From: an uncultured Bacilli bacterium
Lineage (GTDB): Bacteria; Bacillota_I; Bacilli_A; RF39; UBA660
Length of the DNA stretch: 64,000 bases
Direction of reading: 5' to 3'
Assembly (NCBI GenBank): GCA_947629135.1
Contig: CANRCN010000001.1
Location: 411-64,410, forward strand
The position numbers and the translations under genes were made by a program. The notes below the pieces were generated by a model. That model made no database searches. It was not told where the DNA came from and saw only the letters and a program-made list of their open reading frames with translations. Each line of letters begins with the position of its first letter. Position 1 is the stretch's first letter. Below, piece by piece: positions 6,153 to 44,275 of the stretch.

Positions 6153-7159
6153 TCATCTCCTTTATTTTTATTATACACGGATAATTTCTGATTGTAAATA
6201 TTACTTATATGATTATCTAATCTATAATCAGTTAAATTATAATTATTTTTCAAAATATCCCCAAAATATGTGGATAATTTTTCAGCACCATATAAATTTA
6301 AATGTAAACCACCATCATAGGTATCATGATTATAATCTATACCTATTTCTTGAGCTTTTTCTAGAAGATTATAATAATCAAGATTATATGTATTAGCATA
6401 TTCAATTACTTGATCATTATATTCAGAATACCAATAAGGATAAACACTTGGAGCTTTTATTAAAACTAGTTTAATATGATTATTTTCACAAAGTTGTCTT
6501 ATTTTATCTAAGTATGATATAACATTATCTTTAAAAGTATAACTTCCTAATATCTTTTTAGTTGGTAAATTAGTAACTGGTTTTATATTTTTATTCATTA
6601 AATATCCATTATAAGTAACATTATTATCTGTAAATAAATTTTTAAAATCTTCACTAGTTAAAGAAGAAAATCTTGAATGATATCTAACAATTGGAAATAT
6701 ATAATCAAATATCGATTCTTCTTCTAACATAGAATTGTTTATCATTTCTATTTTTTCTTGAGACCATTTCATTTTATCAAGTGTTAAATGATTATAAGCT
6801 TCACTTACAGGTTCATTATATCTTAAAGCATTAACATTTAAGACTACTACCTTAGGAATTTCATATTTTAAAGTTTCTTTTAAAATTCCATAAGATTGCC
6901 AAATTAATTGTTGACTAGTTCCTCTAACATATGATGTTATTCCATAATTCTTATACATTATAAGAGGAGAGAAATTAGCATAAACTTCACAATCTCCAAT
7001 AAATATTACTTCATGATTTTTTTCTTCTTTATAATACTCTTTTATCATATGTCCTTCAATTAAATTTGTTTGGTATTTTGGAGAGACTAATTTATTTAAG
7101 AAAATAAAACATAGTATAAAAACAATTATAATTATTAATATTTTAAAATATTTTTTCAT
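6149..7159 (-). CDS. membrane-anchored DltD/AlgX-like SGNH-fold protein, partner of the adjacent MBOAT
   Basis: N-terminal TM anchor, 'IFIGDCE' GDS-like block, C-terminal 'DGGLHLNLYG' block shared with the paralogues at 37641 and 43171; sits immediately downstream of an MBOAT gene. Confidence 0.5.
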   Translation of the reverse strand: MKKYFKILIIIIVFILCFIFLNKLVSPKYQTNLIEGHMIKEYYKEEKNHEVIFIGDCEVYANFSPLIMYKNYGITSYVRGTSQQLIWQSYGILKETLKYEIPKVVVLNVNALRYNEPVSEAYNHLTLDKMKWSQEKIEMINNSMLEEESIFDYIFPIVRYHSRFSSLTSEDFKNLFTDNNVTYNGYLMNKNIKPVTNLPTKKILGSYTFKDNVISYLDKIRQLCENNHIKLVLIKAPSVYPYWYSEYNDQVIEYANTYNLDYYNLLEKAQEIGIDYNHDTYDGGLHLNLYGAEKLSTYFGDILKNNYNLTDYRLDNHISNIYNQKLSVYNKNKGDE

Positions 7160-8448: not shown

Positions 8449-10265
8449 TAGTTAGCCTCCGGCCATTTTGAATGATCCCAATCACGTCCTTGTAAATGAG
8501 CAAGTCTTTCAGCATCAGTTGCAGCACTGATCATATTATGTAAGTTAGTAGGAGTTGCATCACTATGTCTCCATTTACCATTAATTTTTACTAAACACCA
8601 ATAATGAGATCTATTAGTTGTATAAATAATTTGAACTTCATAACCAGCTTTTTGAAGTAAAGCTTTGTATATTTCAGCATGAACCATACAATTTCCTCGC
8701 CAGTTTGTAAGACCAAACCAGATCTTATCGCTTCCTCCATCTTCATGGGTGTATCGAATATTTTTCATAATCCATTGTCTAATAGATTCATAGTTTGAAC
8801 CAGTTTTAGCAAAGGCAGAGTTTAATTTAGCATTTCTATCTGAAGCATCATATCTTACATAAATTTGTCTTTTGGAAGTTACTTTGTTACCAGATTTGTC
8901 AACCGCTGTATAATAAGCATAGTAAGTACCAGTAGCATTAGTATTAACTTTGCTTGAATCAACACTAAATTGAACATTACCATCTTTTGCATCATAAGCT
9001 GATACTCCATAAGTATAATTAATCTTTGAATATTTATTAACACTCATATAAGATAATCCTCTAAATACAGGTGGTTTTTTATCTTCAATTATTGATAAAG
9101 TAGCTTTTTTTTCTATTTTATTTCCATATTTATCTACGGCTTCAATAGTTATTTCTTGATTCCCTAATTTCTTATAAGTAATTTTTGTTTTTAAAGTTGT
9201 AGTAAATTCTGATGCATCTTTACAACTTTTAATAAACTTATCCTTAGAAACACTAGTTTGATCATTATAAATTGTAACATTTTGAAGCTCTAATTCTGGA
9301 GCTTTAGTATCTTGAACTTTAATCTTTGTTTTAAATTCTAAATCATTATTTTTAATAATTATTTCATATTCTCCAACACCTTGTTTATTTATATTGTCTA
9401 TTTCTTCTTGATTTAAAAATTCTCCTGTTTCTTTAACATTGAATAAGATATCTTCTTTGGTTAAAGGACTTCCAAGTTCTTTAATAACTTCTTGCTTTGA
9501 CATAGCTATTCTTAAAGTTTTAGTAGTTTCTGTTATATTGTTATATTTATCTTTTACTTGTATTTTAACTTTATAATCACCATATTTAGTTATATTAGGT
9601 TTAGTAAGAGATGTAACTTTTGTTTCTGATATGTCTTCAATACTCTCAATAAAGTCTTCAGGATTAAATTCATAATCAATATTAGCATAGTAATCTTTAA
9701 ATTTAACTTTAGGCTTAGTTGTATCAACTAATTTAAGCTTAATTGTTTTGGTTTGGTTAAAAACTTTAAGTTTGATATCATAACTTCCTACTTTAGTTAA
9801 ATCTATCTTTTTAATGTCAGTTATGAAGCTTGTTTTGTAGACAACTTTACCACGTTTATAAAAATCGCTTACATCTATTTTTTTAACTCCAGCTTCTAAA
9901 GTAACACTTGGCTTTAATCCGAATAATATAATAAATAAAATTGTAGAAATACAAAGTAATGAACAAATAGAACTTAGTATTATCAAGACAATCTTTTTTT
10001 TAGATTTTCTTTTAGGTTCATCTTTTTTAGAATTAATATCTATTTTTATTTCCTTTACAGCTTCTTTAGTTTTTTTCTTTTCTTTAATATTAGTAGTTTC
10101 CTTTTTTTCGACTTTTTCTACTTCATTTTTAGGAGTTTTATTTTGAGTCTTTTTTTCAGAATTAGTTATTTTAGAAGTATTTTTAGAGGTTACTTTTTTT
10201 GAATTATTCTTTTTTTTAGTTTGTGAATTTTTATTTTTTACATTTTTTTCTTTTTTTGCACTCAT
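8448..10265 (-). CDS. membrane-anchored surface protein: Lys-rich N-terminus, TM, Ig-like repeats, C-terminal transglutaminase-like Cys/His/Asp domain
   Basis: C-terminus 'GNCMVHAEIY...SHYWCLVK...RHSD' fits a transglutaminase-like cysteine-protease core; AAGGTGG RBS 8 nt before ATG at 10265 (GTG at 10277 is the alternative start). Confidence 0.5.
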   Translation of the reverse strand: MSAKKEKNVKNKNSQTKKKNNSKKVTSKNTSKITNSEKKTQNKTPKNEVEKVEKKETTNIKEKKKTKEAVKEIKIDINSKKDEPKRKSKKKIVLIILSSICSLLCISTILFIILFGLKPSVTLEAGVKKIDVSDFYKRGKVVYKTSFITDIKKIDLTKVGSYDIKLKVFNQTKTIKLKLVDTTKPKVKFKDYYANIDYEFNPEDFIESIEDISETKVTSLTKPNITKYGDYKVKIQVKDKYNNITETTKTLRIAMSKQEVIKELGSPLTKEDILFNVKETGEFLNQEEIDNINKQGVGEYEIIIKNNDLEFKTKIKVQDTKAPELELQNVTIYNDQTSVSKDKFIKSCKDASEFTTTLKTKITYKKLGNQEITIEAVDKYGNKIEKKATLSIIEDKKPPVFRGLSYMSVNKYSKINYTYGVSAYDAKDGNVQFSVDSSKVNTNATGTYYAYYTAVDKSGNKVTSKRQIYVRYDASDRNAKLNSAFAKTGSNYESIRQWIMKNIRYTHEDGGSDKIWFGLTNWRGNCMVHAEIYKALLQKAGYEVQIIYTTNRSHYWCLVKINGKWRHSDATPTNLHNMISAATDAERLAHLQGRDWDHSKWPEAN

Positions 10266-35130: not shown

Positions 35131-36373
<1,243 letters not shown>

Positions 36374-37474: not shown

Positions 37475-37521
37475 GAAGGAAAATTAGGCAGTAAAATTTG
37501 CTGTTTTGAAAGGTGTTATTT

Positions 37522-38600
37522 ATGAATAAAAAGTTAACTAATTGTAAACACGGGGGGGGGGTTATTCCACAGAAAAGTTCACTTCTAAAAAATATAAAAA
37601 TTATTGCTTTAAAATTTTAATATCTGGTATTTTTGCTTTTTTGATATTAAATGTTATTTTTAGTTTTTATTTTAATCCTCCAACTTCTGATAAGGAATAT
37701 GAAAAATCTTCTTTTTTAGTAACTCCCTTTAAATATGAACCAATGGAAAGGTTTACATATGCTCTTGAAGGACATGGTCATGGAAGAGTTAATAATGATG
37801 GATATATAAATGTAGAGGATTATGATTCTAATAAAGAAGTTAATATATTAATGGTAGGGTCATCACAGTTTGAAGCTTTTCAAGTTGATATTAAAAATTC
37901 TGTTACCTATAGATTAAATGAACTGTTGAAAAATAAGTTTGTTTATAATATAGGAGTATCAGGTAATGCATTTCCAGAAAGTATAACTAATATAGCCCCT
38001 GCTATTATTAAATATAAACCTACTGATTACATAATTTTAGAAATGTCAGATGTTAAATATTCAGATCAAGAACTTAGCAAAGTTCTCGAAGAAGAAGATA
38101 ATAAAAAAGATTCTGAAAGTTCTTCAGGTTCAAAATCAGTTAAAAATAACAATGTTATTAGAAAATTTTATAGAAATAGTTCATTTTTAAGATTGTTATG
38201 GAGAAAATTAGAAGAGTTAACCGATAATCGAGAGGCAAATTTACCTGAAGCAAAAGAAGAATTTAATGAAAAACTTACAGGAGAAGTTTTAAATAAAATA
38301 CGTACTATAGTTGAAAATAAAGTTAAAGTAATAATTGTATACCATCCTTCTGTTTCTTTAGAATCTGATGGTAATTTGATACTTTTAAATAATGAAAATG
38401 TAGAAAAATTTTCAAAGTTATGTACAGAAAATGGAATATATTTTCTTGATATGAGTGATAGATTTAGTGCAGAATATAAAAAAAATAATATTTTACCATA
38501 TGGATTTAGTAATACATCAGTAGGAAAAGGACATTTAAATAAATACGGACATGAAATGATAGCTGAAGAATTATATAAATTAATCAAGGAGGAAAAGTAG
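37522..38600 (+). pseudogene. DltD/AlgX-like SGNH-fold membrane protein (MBOAT partner) with a poly-G tract between the predicted start codon and the TM anchor; out of frame in this sequence (phase-OFF)
   Basis: ATG 37522 reads MNKKLTNCKHGGG into G10 and stops at 37620; the long ORF (37548 onward, track 37641..38600) is in the +2 frame and encodes the K-rich/TM anchor, 'MVGSSQ' and C-terminal 'GKGHLNKYGHEM' blocks; G11 or G8 would fuse them. Confidence 0.5.
37552..37561. repeat. poly-G homopolymer (G10)
   Basis: direct read; exceptional in ~25% GC DNA. Confidence 0.95.
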
Positions 38601-38601
38601 T

Positions 38602-39993
38602 ATGTCGTTTGCATCAATAGATTTTTTAATATTTTTTATAGTTGTAATATTGGGAACATTAATTATTCAAAAATTTTTCTCTAAAAGAGTGAAAGAAGTA
38701 TTCTTACTTATTGCAAGTTACTTTTTTTATGGATATTGGGATTGGAGATTTTGTTTCCTATTATTATTTGTAACCTTATCTTCGTATTTTACAGCAAAAT
38801 ATAAAGATAAAAAAGGAATATATATAATAGGAATAGTTATACCATTAATTGTACTAGGATTCTTTAAATATTTTAATTTCTTTTTGGAATCAGTATCAAG
38901 TATAATAGGTCATGATTTAGGAATATTAAATATAATTTTACCAGTTGGAATATCATTTTATACATTTCAAGCTTTAAGTTATGTAATTGATGTAAAAAGA
39001 GAAAAGATAGAAGTTGAAGATGACTTTATAAGATTAGCTTTATATTTAAGTTTCTTTCCACAACTTGTTGCGGGACCAATTGTAAGGGCAGCTGATTTCT
39101 TACCTCAATTAAAAGAAGAAAGAAAAGTAAGTTCAGAAAATTTTAAATATGGTATTCAGCTAATGGCATTTGGATTATTCAAGAAGATTGTAATAGCTGA
39201 TCATTTATCAGTTTTTGTAGATGATGTATTTAAAGTACCAGTAGCATTCCATTGGGCAACGATAGTTCTAGCCGTAATTGCTTATTCAATTCAAATATAT
39301 TTTGATTTTTCAGGATATTCTGATATAGCAATTGGATGTGCTAAATGTTTAGGATATGATTTTAATTCTAACTTTAATTTACCATATATTTCTCAAAATG
39401 TAACAGAATTTTGGAGAAGGTGGCATATAAGTCTATCAACATGGTTAAAAGAATATTTATATATTCCTCTAGGAGGAAATAGAAAAGGTAAAGTTAGACA
39501 ATATATCAATTTATTTATAACTATGTTACTTGGTGGATTATGGCATGGAGCAAGTTGGACATTTGTATTTTGGGGTGGTTTAAATGGATTAGCTTTGTGT
39601 ATAGATAAAATGATACCTAAGAAAAAAGAAAAGAATTTATTTGATAAGGTTATTGGTGTAATATTAACTTATACATTTATATGTTTTACATGGATATTCT
39701 TCAGGGCAGATAACTTTACAAATGCATGGGATATAATAAAAGGAATATTTACTTTACAAAAAGGGATAAGTCAACCTTTTGTATGGGCTTTTGTTGCAAT
39801 TATATTATTAGTTATATTTACAATAGGAGCAATTATAAAATCTCATAAGAATAAAGATAAATATGTAGATGGGTATTATCCAATAGTTAATTTAAATACT
39901 GTATTTGGATTAACAATATTCTTTGTTGTAATAGGATTAATTTTTTGTTTAGCTTTTACAGGCGAACAACCATTTGTATATTTTCAATTTTAA
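38602..39993 (+). CDS. MBOAT-family membrane O-acyltransferase (second copy)
   Basis: 'WRRWHISLSTWLKEYLYIPLGGN' MBOAT His motif; start 1 nt after the DltD-like stop. Confidence 0.85.
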   Translation: MSFASIDFLIFFIVVILGTLIIQKFFSKRVKEVFLLIASYFFYGYWDWRFCFLLLFVTLSSYFTAKYKDKKGIYIIGIVIPLIVLGFFKYFNFFLESVSSIIGHDLGILNIILPVGISFYTFQALSYVIDVKREKIEVEDDFIRLALYLSFFPQLVAGPIVRAADFLPQLKEERKVSSENFKYGIQLMAFGLFKKIVIADHLSVFVDDVFKVPVAFHWATIVLAVIAYSIQIYFDFSGYSDIAIGCAKCLGYDFNSNFNLPYISQNVTEFWRRWHISLSTWLKEYLYIPLGGNRKGKVRQYINLFITMLLGGLWHGASWTFVFWGGLNGLALCIDKMIPKKKEKNLFDKVIGVILTYTFICFTWIFFRADNFTNAWDIIKGIFTLQKGISQPFVWAFVAIILLVIFTIGAIIKSHKNKDKYVDGYYPIVNLNTVFGLTIFFVVIGLIFCLAFTGEQPFVYFQF

Positions 39994-40082: not shown

Positions 40083-41099
40083 ATGAAAAAAAAGTTAACA
40101 ATTAGTCAATCTAGGGGGGGGCATAGTAAAAAAGAGTATAAAGGTATTGATATAACAAAATTTATTATGGCAATTCTAGTAATTGCTTGTCATGCAAATT
40201 TATATACCAATTATGATGGAACAATAGGAACAATCTATCTTTTGGTACTTAGTTGTGTTGTTCCATATTTCTTTATAACTAATGGTTTCTTTATGTATAA
40301 AGATGAAGAAACCTTTGAAAATAAACTTTGGGATAATCTAAAAAAAATTATTAAATTATATATAATTTGGAATATAATTTATTTACCTATTAGTATTTAT
40401 GATTATGCTGTAAATGGGTATTCTGTTATAAAAGCAATAATTCTTTATATTCGAGATTTTCTGTTTATAGGTGATCACTTTTTTTCTTGGCCACTTTGGT
40501 ATTTACTAGGATTTATATATGCCTTGATAGCATTAATTATATTAAAAAAATTAAAATTAAATGATAAAAAAATATTTATAATTACGATGTTAACCTATAT
40601 ATTTGCAAATGTAATGGAATATTTAACATCTATTGGTTCTAATAATATTGTTGTAAAATTATTTAGTTATGTCTTTGGTGATGGAAGAGTATTTACTGGA
40701 ATATTTTTAGTTACACTTGGAATACTTATAAAAAAATACAATGATAAAATTAAGATATCTAAAAAAATATTATTATTGCTAATTATAGTGTGCTTTGCAA
40801 TATCAGTTATAATTCCAAATAAGATAAGCGAAGTTGGATTATATATATTTCTATTTTTATTAGTCAAAGAACTTAATAATATTAAATTTAATACAATTAA
40901 CTTTAGAAGGTGTAGTACAATATTTTATTTTGTACACATGATTAATTTATTTATATATATGTTAATTGTTGGGATAGATAATACTTATGGTGTTTATGGG
41001 TTTCTAATAACAATAGTTGCTTGTATGGTAGAATCTATTATTATAATATTTATTCAAAATAAGTGGAATCCAAAAATTTTAAAGGAATTGTTTAATTAA
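40083..41099 (+). CDS. acyltransferase-3 (OatA/WecH-like) family membrane O-acyltransferase with in-frame poly-G (G8) at codons 11-13
   Basis: 'KGIDITKFIMAILVIACHA' acyl_transf_3 N-terminal motif, ~10 TM; G8 at 40114-40121 encodes Arg-Gly-Gly in frame (phase-ON). Confidence 0.6.
   Translation: MKKKLTISQSRGGHSKKEYKGIDITKFIMAILVIACHANLYTNYDGTIGTIYLLVLSCVVPYFFITNGFFMYKDEETFENKLWDNLKKIIKLYIIWNIIYLPISIYDYAVNGYSVIKAIILYIRDFLFIGDHFFSWPLWYLLGFIYALIALIILKKLKLNDKKIFIITMLTYIFANVMEYLTSIGSNNIVVKLFSYVFGDGRVFTGIFLVTLGILIKKYNDKIKISKKILLLLIIVCFAISVIIPNKISEVGLYIFLFLLVKELNNIKFNTINFRRCSTIFYFVHMINLFIYMLIVGIDNTYGVYGFLITIVACMVESIIIIFIQNKWNPKILKELFN
40114..40121. repeat. poly-G homopolymer (G8) within coding sequence
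   Basis: direct read. Confidence 0.95.
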
Positions 41100-41118: not shown

Positions 41119-42300
41119 GTGATAGAAATGATATATATATATGAAGCAAAAAGAAGTCCAATAGGGAAGTTTAAAAAAGGTTTTATAAATACTGATTGCA
41201 GTATGCTTGGAATGCAAGTTGCTAAAAGTATTATTGAAAATACGAAAATTGATGTAAACAAAATTGATAAAGTTATATTAGGAAATGTTTTATCGGCTGG
41301 TTTAGGACAAAATATTGCAAGACAAATATTAATAAATAGTGGAATACCTGATGATAAAACAGCTTATTCTATTAATATGGTTTGTGGAAGTGGAATGAAA
41401 GCTGTTCATGATGCTTTTAATGATATAAAATTAGGAAATGCTCATTGCATTTTAGCAGGTGGAGTTGAAAATATGAGTATGGCTCCATTATTAAAAGATA
41501 AGTACGATGATAATAAAGAGTTAAAGGATAGTATGTTATATGATGCTTTAACGGATGTATTTTCAAATGAGCATATGGGGATAACGGCTGAGAATGTTGC
41601 AGAAAAATATAATGTAACTAGAGAAGATCAAGATAAATTTGCATATGATTCACAACATAAAGTACAAACGGCAATTGAAAATAAAAAGTTTGATGATGAG
41701 ATAGTTCCAATAAAGACTTTTGAAGGAGAAGTAATAAGTTTAGATGAATTTCCAAGATTTAATACTGAAATGGAAAAACTATCAGCTTTAAAACCAGCTT
41801 TTAAAGAAAATGGAACAGTAACTGCTGGAAATGCTTCTGGAATTAATGATGGCTGTGCTTTGTTATTAATTGGAGATGAAACAATTAGTTTAAAACCTAA
41901 AGCTGAAATTATAGATTTTGCTGAAGCTGGATGTGATCCTAATTATATGGGAATGGGACCATTATATGCAATATCTAAATTATTAGAAAAAAATAATTTA
42001 AATATTAATGATATTGATTTATTTGAAATAAACGAAGCCTTTGCTTCTCAAAGTATAGCAGTTATAAGAGAATTATCTAAAAAATACAATATTAATTTAG
42101 AAGAATTTAACTCTAAAATTAATGTCAATGGTGGAGCAATTGCTTTAGGACACCCAGTTGGTGCATCAGGTGCAAGAATTATAACTACTTTAGTTCATGA
42201 AATGAAAAGAAGAAATTCAAAATATGGTGTAGCTTCACTTTGTATAGGTGGTGGTATGGGAATAGCTGTATTATTAAAAAATATGTGTGAGGAGGATTAA
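41119..42300 (+). CDS. acetyl-CoA C-acetyltransferase (thiolase II, PhaA/ThlA-like)
   Basis: Thiolase signatures: N-terminal 'EAKRSPIGKF', catalytic Cys 'NMVCGSGMKAV', C-terminal 'NVNGGAIALGHPVGASGARI' and 'SLCIGGGMG'. Confidence 0.85.
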   Translation: MIEMIYIYEAKRSPIGKFKKGFINTDCSMLGMQVAKSIIENTKIDVNKIDKVILGNVLSAGLGQNIARQILINSGIPDDKTAYSINMVCGSGMKAVHDAFNDIKLGNAHCILAGGVENMSMAPLLKDKYDDNKELKDSMLYDALTDVFSNEHMGITAENVAEKYNVTREDQDKFAYDSQHKVQTAIENKKFDDEIVPIKTFEGEVISLDEFPRFNTEMEKLSALKPAFKENGTVTAGNASGINDGCALLLIGDETISLKPKAEIIDFAEAGCDPNYMGMGPLYAISKLLEKNNLNINDIDLFEINEAFASQSIAVIRELSKKYNINLEEFNSKINVNGGAIALGHPVGASGARIITTLVHEMKRRNSKYGVASLCIGGGMGIAVLLKNMCEED

Positions 42301-42301
42301 T

Positions 42302-43015
42302 ATGTTAGAAGGAAAAATTGCAATAGTAACTGGAGCATCTCGTGGTATCGGATTAGAAATAGCAAAGTTGTTTACAAAAGAGGGAGCAAAAGTTATTGGT
42401 ACATATAATCATAATAAAACAGATATAGATGGTGTAGATTTTTATAAATTAGATGTTTCTAACAGAGAAGAAGTTAAAACATTTGTAGATACTATTATTA
42501 ACAAGTATAATAAAATAGATATTCTTGTTAATAATGCTGGAATAACAGCTGATGCATTAACTAAAAAAATGTCTGATGAAATGTTTGATAAGGTAATAAA
42601 TACTAATCTTACAGGAACCTATAATATAACTAAACTAATTGGTCCAATTATGCAAGATAATCATAGTGGTAGTATAATTAATATTACATCAATAGTTGGT
42701 ATATATGGAAATATTGGACAAGTAAATTATGCAGCTTCAAAAAGCGGTATTATAGGAATGACCCATACTTGGGCAAAAGAATTTGCTATGAAAGATGGAA
42801 ATGTTAGAGTTAATGCAATAGCACCAGGATATACAATGACAGAGATGCTTAAAACAGTTCCAGAAGAATTATTAGACAAGTTTAAAAGTATGACTTTATT
42901 GAAAAGATTAGCTGAACCTGAAGATATAGCTAATGCAGCATTATTTTTAGCAAGTGACATGGCTAGTTATATAACAGATGAAATATTAAATGTTAATGGT
43001 GGCATGAAATTATAA
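42302..43015 (+). CDS. SDR-family 3-oxoacyl reductase (FabG/PhaB-like acetoacetyl-CoA reductase)
   Basis: 'TGASRGIG' cofactor motif, 'NAG' and 'YAASK' catalytic motif; GAGGAGG RBS 6 nt before ATG 42302. Confidence 0.85.
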   Translation: MLEGKIAIVTGASRGIGLEIAKLFTKEGAKVIGTYNHNKTDIDGVDFYKLDVSNREEVKTFVDTIINKYNKIDILVNNAGITADALTKKMSDEMFDKVINTNLTGTYNITKLIGPIMQDNHSGSIINITSIVGIYGNIGQVNYAASKSGIIGMTHTWAKEFAMKDGNVRVNAIAPGYTMTEMLKTVPEELLDKFKSMTLLKRLAEPEDIANAALFLASDMASYITDEILNVNGGMKL

Positions 43016-43051: not shown

Positions 43052-44094
43052 GTGAAAAAGAATATAGAAAAAGTTAACAATAAGTCACCTCGGGGGGGGG
43101 GGCTTATAAAAAATATATAATAATATTTAAATTAATATTATCTTGCTTTATTGCATTTATAATATTAAATTTGTTTTGTATTTTTTATTATAATATACCA
43201 GTACATTCTACTTCTAAAGATGGTGCAACTGATTACGTTTGGGAACCAAACAAGTTTTATTCACGTTGGACTGAAGGCTTTGGATATGGAAGAACGAACA
43301 ATGAAGGTTATTATGATTATAAAAAATATAAAAAGAGCGATAATGTTGATATATTAGTTATGGGATCTTCACATATGGAAGCAGCTCAAATACAACAAAA
43401 TAAATCTACATCAGGATTGCTTGATAATATGTTAAAAGATTATTATGTTTATAATATAGGAATATCGGGTCATACATTTATAACCTGTGTTAGTAATCTT
43501 GAAGCTGCTATTACTAAATATAATCCAAATAAATATATTATTATTGAAACTAACACAGTTACTTTTTCAGATAGTGATTTGAACAATGCATTGAACAATT
43601 CAGTTGAAGAAATTCCTTCTTATGATGGAGGTGTAATTGGTATACTACAGCAAAATCAACTTTTAAGATTATTATATCATCAAGCAGAGTCTTTTCTTAA
43701 TTTAGAAAATGAAGGAGATATAATTCCAAATAGTCAAACTAACTTTGATACTAATTTTAACTTATTAAATCAACTTTTTATAAAAATGCAAGAAAAAGCA
43801 GAAAAAAATAATATTAAAATAATAATAATGTATCATCCAAGTACAACTTTGAATAAAGATGGAAGTTTAAATTTGTCAAGTGAAAATGAAAATATAGAAG
43901 AATTTTCGAAATTATGTAAAGAAAATGGAATATATTTTCTTGATATGAGTGATAGATTTAGAGAAGAATATGAAAAGAATTATATTCTACCATATGGATT
44001 TAGTAATACATCAGTAGGCACAGGTCATTTAAATAAATATGGACATGAAATGATTGCTGAAGAATTATATAAATTAATCAAGGAGGAAAAGTAG
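43052..44094 (+). pseudogene. second DltD/AlgX-like SGNH-fold paralogue, again with a poly-G tract between the predicted start (GTG 43052) and the TM anchor, out of frame in this sequence
   Basis: GTG 43052 reads VKKNIEKVNNKSPRGGG into G11 and stops at 43120; the long ORF (open from 43084, track 43171..44094) is in the +2 frame; the C-terminal 60 aa are near-identical to the 37641 paralogue; G12 or G9 would fuse them. Confidence 0.45.
43092..43102. repeat. poly-G homopolymer (G11)
   Basis: direct read. Confidence 0.95.
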
Positions 44095-44275
44095 AGTATC
44101 GCTTTTATCAATAGACTTTTTAATATTTTTTATAGTTATAATACTAGGAACATTTATTATTTAAATATAGAAGTATTCTTACTTATTGCAAGTTACTTTT
44201 TTTTAATATTGGATTTAATATTTTGTTTTCTATTTCATATTTTACAGCAAAATATATGTATATTTCAAATTTTAA
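44095..44275 (+). pseudogene. degenerate 5' remnant of an MBOAT gene (partial duplicate of 38602-38800)
   Basis: Nucleotide-level similarity to the start of MBOAT 38602 ('atcaatagactttttaatattttttatagtt', 'gaagtattcttacttattgcaagttacttttttt', 'tattttacagcaaaatata') with internal deletions and stops. Confidence 0.55.

Follow-up and report, generated by a model that had tools for sequence, protein, structure and literature searches.

The G10 tract of SGNH gene 1, which lies in a surface-polysaccharide locus of an uncultured gut bacterium, is probably the switch of a simple-sequence-repeat (SSR) contingency gene, in which slipped-strand mispairing would toggle translation. The window, that is, the whole stretch of DNA analysed, is 64,000 nucleotides long. 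The initial annotation had placed the tract between the start codon of the gene and its membrane anchor; this is borne out, and the catalytic body lies beyond the tract as well.

Reading frames at the G10 tract

Direct reading of the sequence places a ribosome binding site (RBS; GAAAGG, 37508–37513) and an ATG start codon at 37522 (together 37508–37524, + strand) ahead of the tract, an arrangement that also precedes the AT3 gene of the same locus and recurs in orthologues. The ATG frame begins with MNKKLTNCKH, runs into the ten G residues at 37552–37561 (+ strand) and ends at 37620, just as had been described, so that the OFF-phase product of the G10 allele is a 32-aa peptide, MNKKLTNCKHGGGVIPQKSSLLKNIKIIALKF, followed by the stop codon at 37618–37620 (37522–37620, + strand). 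The body of the gene, 345 codons and a stop (37563–38600, + strand), is in the −1 frame, which is open from 37548 to the stop codon at 38598–38600 and includes …YSTEKFTSKKYKNYCFKILISGIFAFLILNVIFSFYF…. Its translation comprises YSTEKFTSKKYKNY, a hydrophobic helix of 23 residues (CFKILISGIFAFLILNVIFSFYF) and a domain of 300 residues, which correspond to a Lys-rich cytoplasmic stub, a transmembrane (TM) anchor (about 37605–37673) and an extracytoplasmic SGNH-fold domain. The Lys-rich stretch and the TM helix are thus in a frame other than that of the start codon, in agreement with the initial annotation.

Rebuilding the gene with different tract lengths gave continuous proteins of 358, 359 and 360 aa at G8, G11 and G14, the lengths at which the proposed switch is ON, and peptides of 21–33 aa at all other lengths; the prediction that G11 or G8 would yield a single membrane-anchored protein therefore held. 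A single-unit change in length toggles expression by frame, and the assembled gene is one G short of ON. A downstream start that leaves the anchor intact, which by the initial annotation would have refuted its own proposal, does not exist: the body frame contains no ATG, GTG or TTG before TTG 37641, which falls midway through the TM helix, and hence no tract-independent start delivers the full anchor. No other lesion is present in the 345-codon body, which retains 24 of the 24 residues that are invariant in a 62-member family alignment; judged by its sequence, SGNH gene 1 is not decayed. The term OFF denotes here the state of the consensus assembly, and slippage by −1 on the G run may allow some leaky expression.

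The window has a G+C content of 23.7%, and G makes up 14.9% of this strand. Runs of 1 to 5 G occur 6424, 1296, 122, 29 and 4 times, runs of 6 or 7 are absent, and beyond these there is one run each of 8, 10 and 11 G and nothing else. Only about 0.001 runs of at least 10 G are expected per window, which bears out the earlier remark that such a run is not a chance product in DNA this AT-rich, and because GGG accounts for only 6.5% of the Gly codons in the window, coding need does not explain the G10 run either. A chance origin of the G10 tract is excluded. The G8, G10 and G11 runs are clustered inside 5.6 kb, each with G on the coding strand and 30–40 nt past a start codon, and all of them sit in acylation genes of a Wzx/Wzy-type polysaccharide locus. 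The G10 of SGNH gene 1 reaches the length of a hypermutable repeat, for which the empirical cut-off of variable poly-G/C tracts is at least 7–8, and coding-strand G lengths of 8–11 match the experimentally variable tracts of Campylobacter (PMC6321876).

Companion tracts, orthologues and a flanking motif

Four putative repeat switches, three poly-G tracts and one (AT)17 repeat, are found in the surface-polysaccharide locus of the window. The Acyl_transf_3 (AT3) gene (40083–41099, + strand, 338 aa) has a G8 tract at 40114–40121 that is in phase (ON). SGNH paralogue 2 (43052–44094, + strand) starts with GTG 43052 and carries G11 at 43092–43102 ahead of a body at 43105–44094; it is OFF at G11 and would be ON at G9 or G12. 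The Fer4/FrhB-like gene (35131–36373, + strand) is split by (AT)17 at 35481–35514 and is OFF, with ON phases at 15 or 18 units; its orthologue in the related locus L001 is interrupted at the corresponding position by a G10 tract that is OFF and one G too long, and that in L004 is intact (405 aa). Behind SGNH paralogue 2, repeat families D1 and D4 together with translation identify the remnant of a second MBOAT gene (44096–44203, + strand), comprising the 5′ end only and lacking a start codon; either SGNH paralogue 2 now borrows the other MBOAT or it is decaying. It has lost its own MBOAT, and some OFF genes in this locus may be decaying.

The closest relatives come from rabbit-gut MAGs labelled 'uncultured Bacilli bacterium' with 22–25% G+C, and are SPAdes-style metagenome contigs. 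The orthologue that is 70% identical to SGNH gene 1 (P0002, L005) has no tract (…AATAATAGGTGAG…) and keeps a Lys-rich leader of the same length and the anchor, which places the true N-terminus upstream of the tract. At the leader site, the orthologue of 66% identity (P0003, L001) has G10 in frame (MHKNSNFRGGGTYRNN…, 355 aa, ON), that of 61% identity (P0004, L004) has G6 and is OFF (ON at 7), and that of 42% identity (P0044, L018) has G8 and is OFF (ON at 9). The position of the tract is conserved among orthologues, and both phases are present between species. The description of SGNH gene 1 as phase-OFF is thus sustained in that G10 is the OFF length and orthologues show ON and OFF, although reversible switching was not seen. 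Tracts occur also in a hexapeptide acetyltransferase gene of L001 (G10, ON) and in the AT3 gene of L010 (G9, OFF, with an apparent second lesion), and the L004 locus combines its short G6 tract and OFF SGNH gene with a fragmented MBOAT. Homologues from genomes above 40% G+C had no tracts, and truncated homologues from high-G+C genomes (L058–L060) were rejected as candidates, having GTG or TTG starts instead and no repeat. Because the orthologues are at least 30% divergent in protein, synonymous sites are saturated.

Across the window and the related loci, 4 of 10 repeats are ON, which is close to the one-third expected under drifting phases, as reported for Campylobacter draft genomes (PMC6321876). 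In five of the six OFF poly-G tracts, the addition of exactly one G would restore the ON phase, a pattern that could be caused by deletion bias, by under-calling of tracts or by expression through −1 slippage. Within single lineages, no variation in tract length was found among the consensus assemblies compared. Five L001-type contigs (L001/2/3/9/54), which were found via MBOAT and are therefore unbiased for SGNH phase, all have G10/G10/G10, two L018-type samples (L055/56) both have G8, and an independent ENA contig from a second sample (L043) has the same G11 in SGNH paralogue 2 as the window, in a copy of only about 2x coverage. The ON allele of SGNH gene 1 is absent from a database of 5.8 billion proteins, which holds stubs only, of 319 and 307 aa. 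Exact-protein look-ups of the window MBOAT, the nitroreductase and the 319-aa stub gave no match, and the window lineage was therefore compared in one other sample, for SGNH paralogue 2 only (L043). As the compared sequences are consensus assemblies from few samples, possibly of one rabbit cohort, in which minority lengths are invisible, the within-lineage test of length is weak; that tract length changes at high frequency is what we infer.

An 18-nt motif, AGTTAAC-N5-GTAAAC, is located 2 nt upstream of G10 (37532–37549, + strand), and in the form AGTTAAC-N5-GTMAMY it stands 2–3 nt before all three window tracts (37532–37549, 40093–40110 and 43072–43089). Written out as AGTTAAC-N5-GT[CA]A[AC][CT], it has three copies in the window, every one before a G tract, and a repeat finder independently recovered it as a three-copy family (D3). 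The corresponding statistic for the window (3 found, 0 expected) is circular, because the pattern was derived from the same three copies. Out of sample, the motif again precedes the tracts of L018 (SGNH) and L010 (AT3), and among independently fetched loci totalling 486 kb the 18-mer was found only before G8–G11 tracts. Translation of the motif gives K-L-T in SGNH gene 1 and in the AT3 gene of the window, K-V-N in L018 and in SGNH paralogue 2, and [K/I]-V-N in the L010 AT3 orthologue; being read in differing frames, it is conserved at the nucleic-acid level and not as a peptide.

Restriction avoidance for GTTAAC was rejected as an account of the motif, as the window has 13 copies of the hexamer against 16–18 expected, which is no depletion, and so was an RNA hairpin, as the two hexamers always pair with a central mismatch and ViennaRNA folds are inconsistent. 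Rfam, at permissive E-values, gave no match at tracts or motif in the 33–48 kb part of the window and seven motif-bearing loci. The idea that the tract is a promoter spacer separating −35 and −10 elements was rejected by hand on the + strand, where the spacers are 21–25 nt, and on the − strand, where no −10 fits; a generic promoter scan was uninformative in such AT-rich DNA (91 hits versus 84 expected). A trans-acting protein could act at the motif, or else the motif could be an element that sets the rate or direction of slippage; it looks like a pair of GTYAAC half-sites spaced 11 bp apart, and that such a pair would match a DNA-binding protein of dimeric or tandem type is conjecture.

A scan of viral contigs for the motif plus a tract gave 0 hits, and a metagenome scan for the motif plus G7 returned 10 contigs, 8 of which are low in G+C and belong, by sequence, to three groups. 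In L046, L048, L049 and L050, a short leader ORF is followed by a strong terminator hairpin and then by a gene for a signal-anchored protein, which in L048 has no Pfam match; L045, L052 and L053 end at or barely past the tract, and L044 is a near-copy of L046. In each of the former four, exactly one of the three tract phases takes the leader ORF into the terminator, and in the observed phase the ORF stops short of the terminator, 51 nt past the tract in L048 and immediately past it in the other three. This arrangement, with a chance probability estimated at 1–3%, is only suggestive of phase-variable, translation-coupled antitermination. It is conceivable, if doubtful, that the poly-G tract belongs to a portable switch cassette, composed of an RBS, a start codon, a few codons, AGTTAAC-N5-GTMAMY, 2–3 nt and the G run. 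The cassette appears to have two modes, being fused to the N-termini of membrane enzymes in the window and elsewhere placed as a leader ORF with an intrinsic terminator before a surface-protein gene.

Other readings of the G10 allele

Were SGNH gene 1 a fixed frameshift pseudogene, its tract would once have been in frame and then lost a G, leaving the gene permanently dead and decaying. The tract lengths, which are identical in every independent assembly of each lineage, are consistent with this, as are SGNH paralogue 2 without its partner MBOAT, the L004 locus with G6, a fragmented MBOAT and an OFF SGNH gene, and the L010 AT3 gene with its apparent second lesion. Nevertheless, the body of gene 1 is free of a second lesion and has kept all family-invariant residues, and its MBOAT partner is intact. 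Moreover, a neutral origin leaves unexplained both the three start-proximal G8–G11 runs in 24% G+C DNA and the conservation of tract position, with both phases, over orthologues of 42–66% identity. We therefore hold decay of gene 1 to be unlikely.

The one-G deficit in five of the six OFF poly-G tracts would also arise if the length had been miscalled, the real tract being G11 and the gene ON, with a G dropped in assembly or a minority path picked in a mixed population; the relatives are SPAdes-style metagenome contigs, and the second copy of SGNH paralogue 2 has about 2x coverage. However, short, easily sequenced tracts are OFF too (G6 in L004; G8 in L018, in two samples), the same assemblies call G10 in frame (SGNH and hexapeptide genes of L001), and the FrhB-like tract of L001 is one G too long. 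There is thus no uniform undercall, and a miscall at gene 1 seems to us quite improbable. The same deficit, together with a body in the −1 frame relative to the ATG, agrees with programmed recoding, whereby the G10 allele would yield the full protein at a defined level, either because ribosomes shift to the −1 frame as Gly-tRNA re-pairs on G GGG GGG or because RNA polymerase stutters and inserts an extra G, and the tract would tune expression and not switch it. The G run is SD-like, and the conserved motif 2–3 nt upstream could act as a stimulatory element. Orthologues and neighbouring genes that share this motif are nevertheless in frame (the window AT3 gene at G8 and the L001 SGNH gene at G10), and the L001 FrhB-like gene needs one G fewer, from which it follows that there is no fixed recoding geometry; furthermore, no consistent RNA structure is predicted around or past the tract, and Rfam finds nothing there. 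Recoding we accordingly regard as very improbable, and a slipped-strand switch is our preferred reading of the tract.

An MBOAT-SGNH pair under a proposed switch

SGNH gene 1 has no Pfam model above threshold, and both SGNH paralogues give weak SGNH/GDSL signals in Pfam. Among 62 family members, matches were to Lipase_GDSL_2 (44), DUF1574 (13), the AT3-fused SGNH domain (13) and DUF459 (7), with DltD at 0. A confident AlphaFold model from the family alignment (pLDDT 90, pTM 0.88) has a long N-terminal helix and then an SGNH fold. In the 62 aligned sequences, GSS…E, YNxGxS and GH…GH are invariant, and these may include the catalytic Ser (block I) and His (block V). A sequence-profile search of the PDB found no solved relative. 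The partner MBOAT acyltransferase (38602–39993, + strand; Pfam MBOAT, E 6e-36) has its own strong RBS (AAGGAGG) and a C-terminus reading …PFVYFQF, the last six residues of which, FVYFQF (39973–39990), fit the FXYXXF acyl-shuttle motif that marks acyl-CoA-dependent MBOAT-SGNH pairs such as PatA/PatB (Anderson et al., PMC12148441). In the Dlt system, the acyl-shuttle motif is placed on a separate microprotein, DltX (PMC12148441). Since the MBOAT has an FXYXXF motif of its own, the pair resembles PatA/PatB rather than Dlt.

An MBOAT with an FXYXXF tail and an adjoining membrane-tethered SGNH-fold partner, the features of an MBOAT-SGNH pair, are both present. Such pairs act on peptidoglycan (PatA/PatB), alginate (AlgI/AlgJ/AlgX) and cellulose (WssH/WssI), and PatA1/PatB1 is the pair for the Bacillus secondary cell wall polysaccharide (PMC12148441); as in these, an FVYFQF-tailed MBOAT here adjoins a membrane-tethered extracytoplasmic SGNH-fold protein. 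The initial annotation had called SGNH gene 1 'DltD-like'. Its logic, that of a membrane-tethered SGNH partner of an MBOAT, stands, and DltB/DltD of teichoic-acid D-alanylation likewise consist of an MBOAT adjoining an N-terminally anchored SGNH-type protein. Membership of the DltD family is rejected, as none of the 62 members matches DltD and they are closer to generic SGNH proteins; a Dlt operon context, with DltA, DltC and DltX and an MBOAT devoid of a shuttle motif, is rejected too, as the neighbours are nitroreductase, AT3, thiolase, SDR and glycosyltransferase genes and the MBOAT carries FVYFQF. The label holds only by analogy.

The locus from 11.6 to 50 kb contains genes for Wzz, a tyrosine-kinase-like ATPase, CapD, DegT, and GT1 and GT2 glycosyltransferases, and also for a Wzx-type flippase, ATP-grasp enzymes and UDP-glucose dehydrogenase. 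The acceptor of the acyl group is, by this context, likely a capsular or wall polysaccharide. A thiolase gene (41119–42300) and an SDR gene (42287–43015) lie between the AT3 gene and SGNH paralogue 2, and these neighbours raise the possibility that the acyl group may be 3-hydroxybutyryl rather than acetyl.

We propose that the product of SGNH gene 1 would be a type-II membrane-anchored extracytoplasmic SGNH-fold acyltransferase that works with the downstream MBOAT. By analogy with PatA/PatB, acyl-CoA would supply an acyl group that the MBOAT attaches to the Tyr in its own C-terminal FXYXXF tail; outside the membrane, the serine of the SGNH enzyme would receive the group from this tail, and the enzyme would then esterify the surface polysaccharide made by the surrounding Wzx/Wzy locus. 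Slipped-strand mispairing, by the gain or loss of one G, would decide between the 32-aa dead-end peptide and the full enzyme, which would carry a variable Gly3–5 stretch from the tract; because the tract is within a dispensable cytoplasmic leader, ON alleles would differ only in the number of glycines before the anchor. The MBOAT, having its own AAGGAGG RBS, would still be made when both SGNH partners are OFF, leaving it without an acceptor-side transferase, and this MBOAT acylation route would consequently be silent, while the AT3 enzyme is ON. Independent switching of the AT3 gene (ON), SGNH paralogue 2 (OFF) and the (AT)17 gene (OFF) would make acylation of the polysaccharide combinatorially heterogeneous across the population. 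We infer the acyl donor and, likewise, the selective agent, be it phage, antibody or host lectins.

That surface-glycan modification genes vary in phase through SSRs is already well established, by poly-G in Campylobacter and (TA)n in wciZ (PMC6321876, PMC5028725). The poly-G genes of Campylobacter jejuni, which function in capsule, LOS and flagellar-glycan modification, likewise lie in an AT-rich genome, with coding-strand G8–11 runs inside ORFs in great excess over chance, a concentration of tracts in surface-glycan modification genes, mixed ON/OFF states, and non-variable homologues in which the tract is absent or interrupted (PMC6321876). Unlike Campylobacter, the host here is an uncultured gut 'Bacilli' of ~23% G+C and Gram-positive type (a related locus contains LytR-CpsA-Psr), every tract lies within the first 14 codons and is accompanied by the 18-nt flanking motif, and switching is a proposal from assembled sequence. 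In literature searches, we found no description of a flanking motif beside Campylobacter tracts, nor of a frame-independent flanking motif and a leader/terminator mode. The Streptococcus pneumoniae gene wciZ (serotype 15B/15C) encodes a capsule O-acetyltransferase switched by a (TA)n repeat, and it too is an acyl-modification gene of a Gram-positive capsule locus that is inactivated by a change in repeat length, which alters the antigenicity of the sugar coat (PMC5028725); the window locus also has an (AT)17 switch. In wciZ, the dinucleotide repeat is mid-gene in a single AT3-type enzyme, whereas the main proposed switch here is a poly-G run, which occupies the N-terminal leader of the SGNH partner in an MBOAT-SGNH system of two proteins, and parallel switching of several genes is proposed.

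Stochastic surface variation counters recognition by phage, antibody and lectins in Campylobacter, Neisseria, Haemophilus and pneumococcus. Because gene callers truncate or split genes with tracts, MAG-based functional profiles misread them. Should the frame-independent motif prove functional, it and its recurrence in leader/terminator units would add a new feature to homopolymer switches. If the tracts switch, an uncultured gut commensal would stochastically diversify the acyl decoration of its surface polysaccharide, with four independent switches giving up to 16 surface states, and SSR contingency loci would be extended to very AT-rich uncultured gut Bacilli and to MBOAT-SGNH polymer acyltransferases.

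A motif shared by poly-G tracts of unrelated genes

Just 5′ of each poly-G tract, at a spacing of 2-3 nt, stands a motif of 18 nt, AGTTAAC-N5-GTMAMY. Copies occur at 37532-37549, 40093-40110 and 43072-43089 in the window and, in related loci fetched for comparison, at 5980-5997 of L018 and 9406-9423 of L010. The motif is common to non-homologous genes, among which its reading frame varies, and no copy without an adjoining tract was found in 486 kb of related loci. The Acyl_transf_3 gene (40083-41099) carries a G8 tract at 40114-40121, 31 nt past its ATG, which leaves the gene in phase to encode 338 aa; G11 would be a further ON length, and its orthologue in L010 is OFF with G9.

A second SGNH gene, the SGNH paralogue 2 (43052-44203, including an MBOAT remnant), is OFF with a G11 tract at 43092-43102. 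Over its final ~210 nt this paralogue is 90% identical to SGNH gene 1, the G10-bearing gene directly upstream of the intact MBOAT acyltransferase gene, and 3′ of it, at ~44096-44203, are the remains of the 5′ end of an MBOAT gene, now lacking its start codon. This arrangement resembles a duplicate of an SGNH-MBOAT pair in which the MBOAT has since been lost.

Leader ORFs, terminators and other variable sites

In four low-G+C metagenome contigs, the same motif together with G8-G9 makes up a leader ORF of 18-30 aa, followed by a strong intrinsic terminator and then by a gene for a signal-anchored protein (L046, ~8730-8900; L048, ~6560-6760, minus strand; L049, ~2100-2260; L050, ~725-870). Of the three possible tract phases, just one takes the leader ORF into the terminator stem in each contig, and these units may represent phase-variable attenuation. 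Separately, L046 and the near-identical contig L044 differ in the poly-A run that separates the motif from the leader ATG, which is A7 in L046 and A8 in L044, the extra A shifting the L044 leader ORF out of frame; no other length difference was seen between near-identical contigs.

The Fer4/FrhB-like gene (35131-36373) is split by an (AT)17 dinucleotide repeat at 35481-35514 and would be ON at 15 or 18 units. Among its orthologues in rabbit-gut MAGs, that of L004 is intact and that of L001 is split by G10 at the identical point; therefore, two repeat types arose at one site.

Two samples of one lineage differ 3′ of MBOAT (L055, 6518-8226; L056, 2891-4522): IspD-like and epimerase genes are separate in L055, whereas L056 has a single 543-aa fusion. 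Because the two diverge past base 692 of the first gene, a structural variant is indicated.

Acyl supply and unequal conservation of the enzyme pair

Embedded between the predicted phase-variable acyltransferase genes of this polysaccharide locus are genes for a thiolase and a FabG-like SDR (41119-43015), a putative source that could supply 3-hydroxybutyryl-CoA as acyl donor. MBOAT (38602-39993) is unusually conserved, with homologues of 67-92% identity in many gut Clostridia, Bacilli and Synergistota, and its SGNH partner shows just 35-70% identity. Judged by these identities, the predicted acceptor-side enzyme (SGNH) is evolving much faster than the donor-side one (MBOAT).
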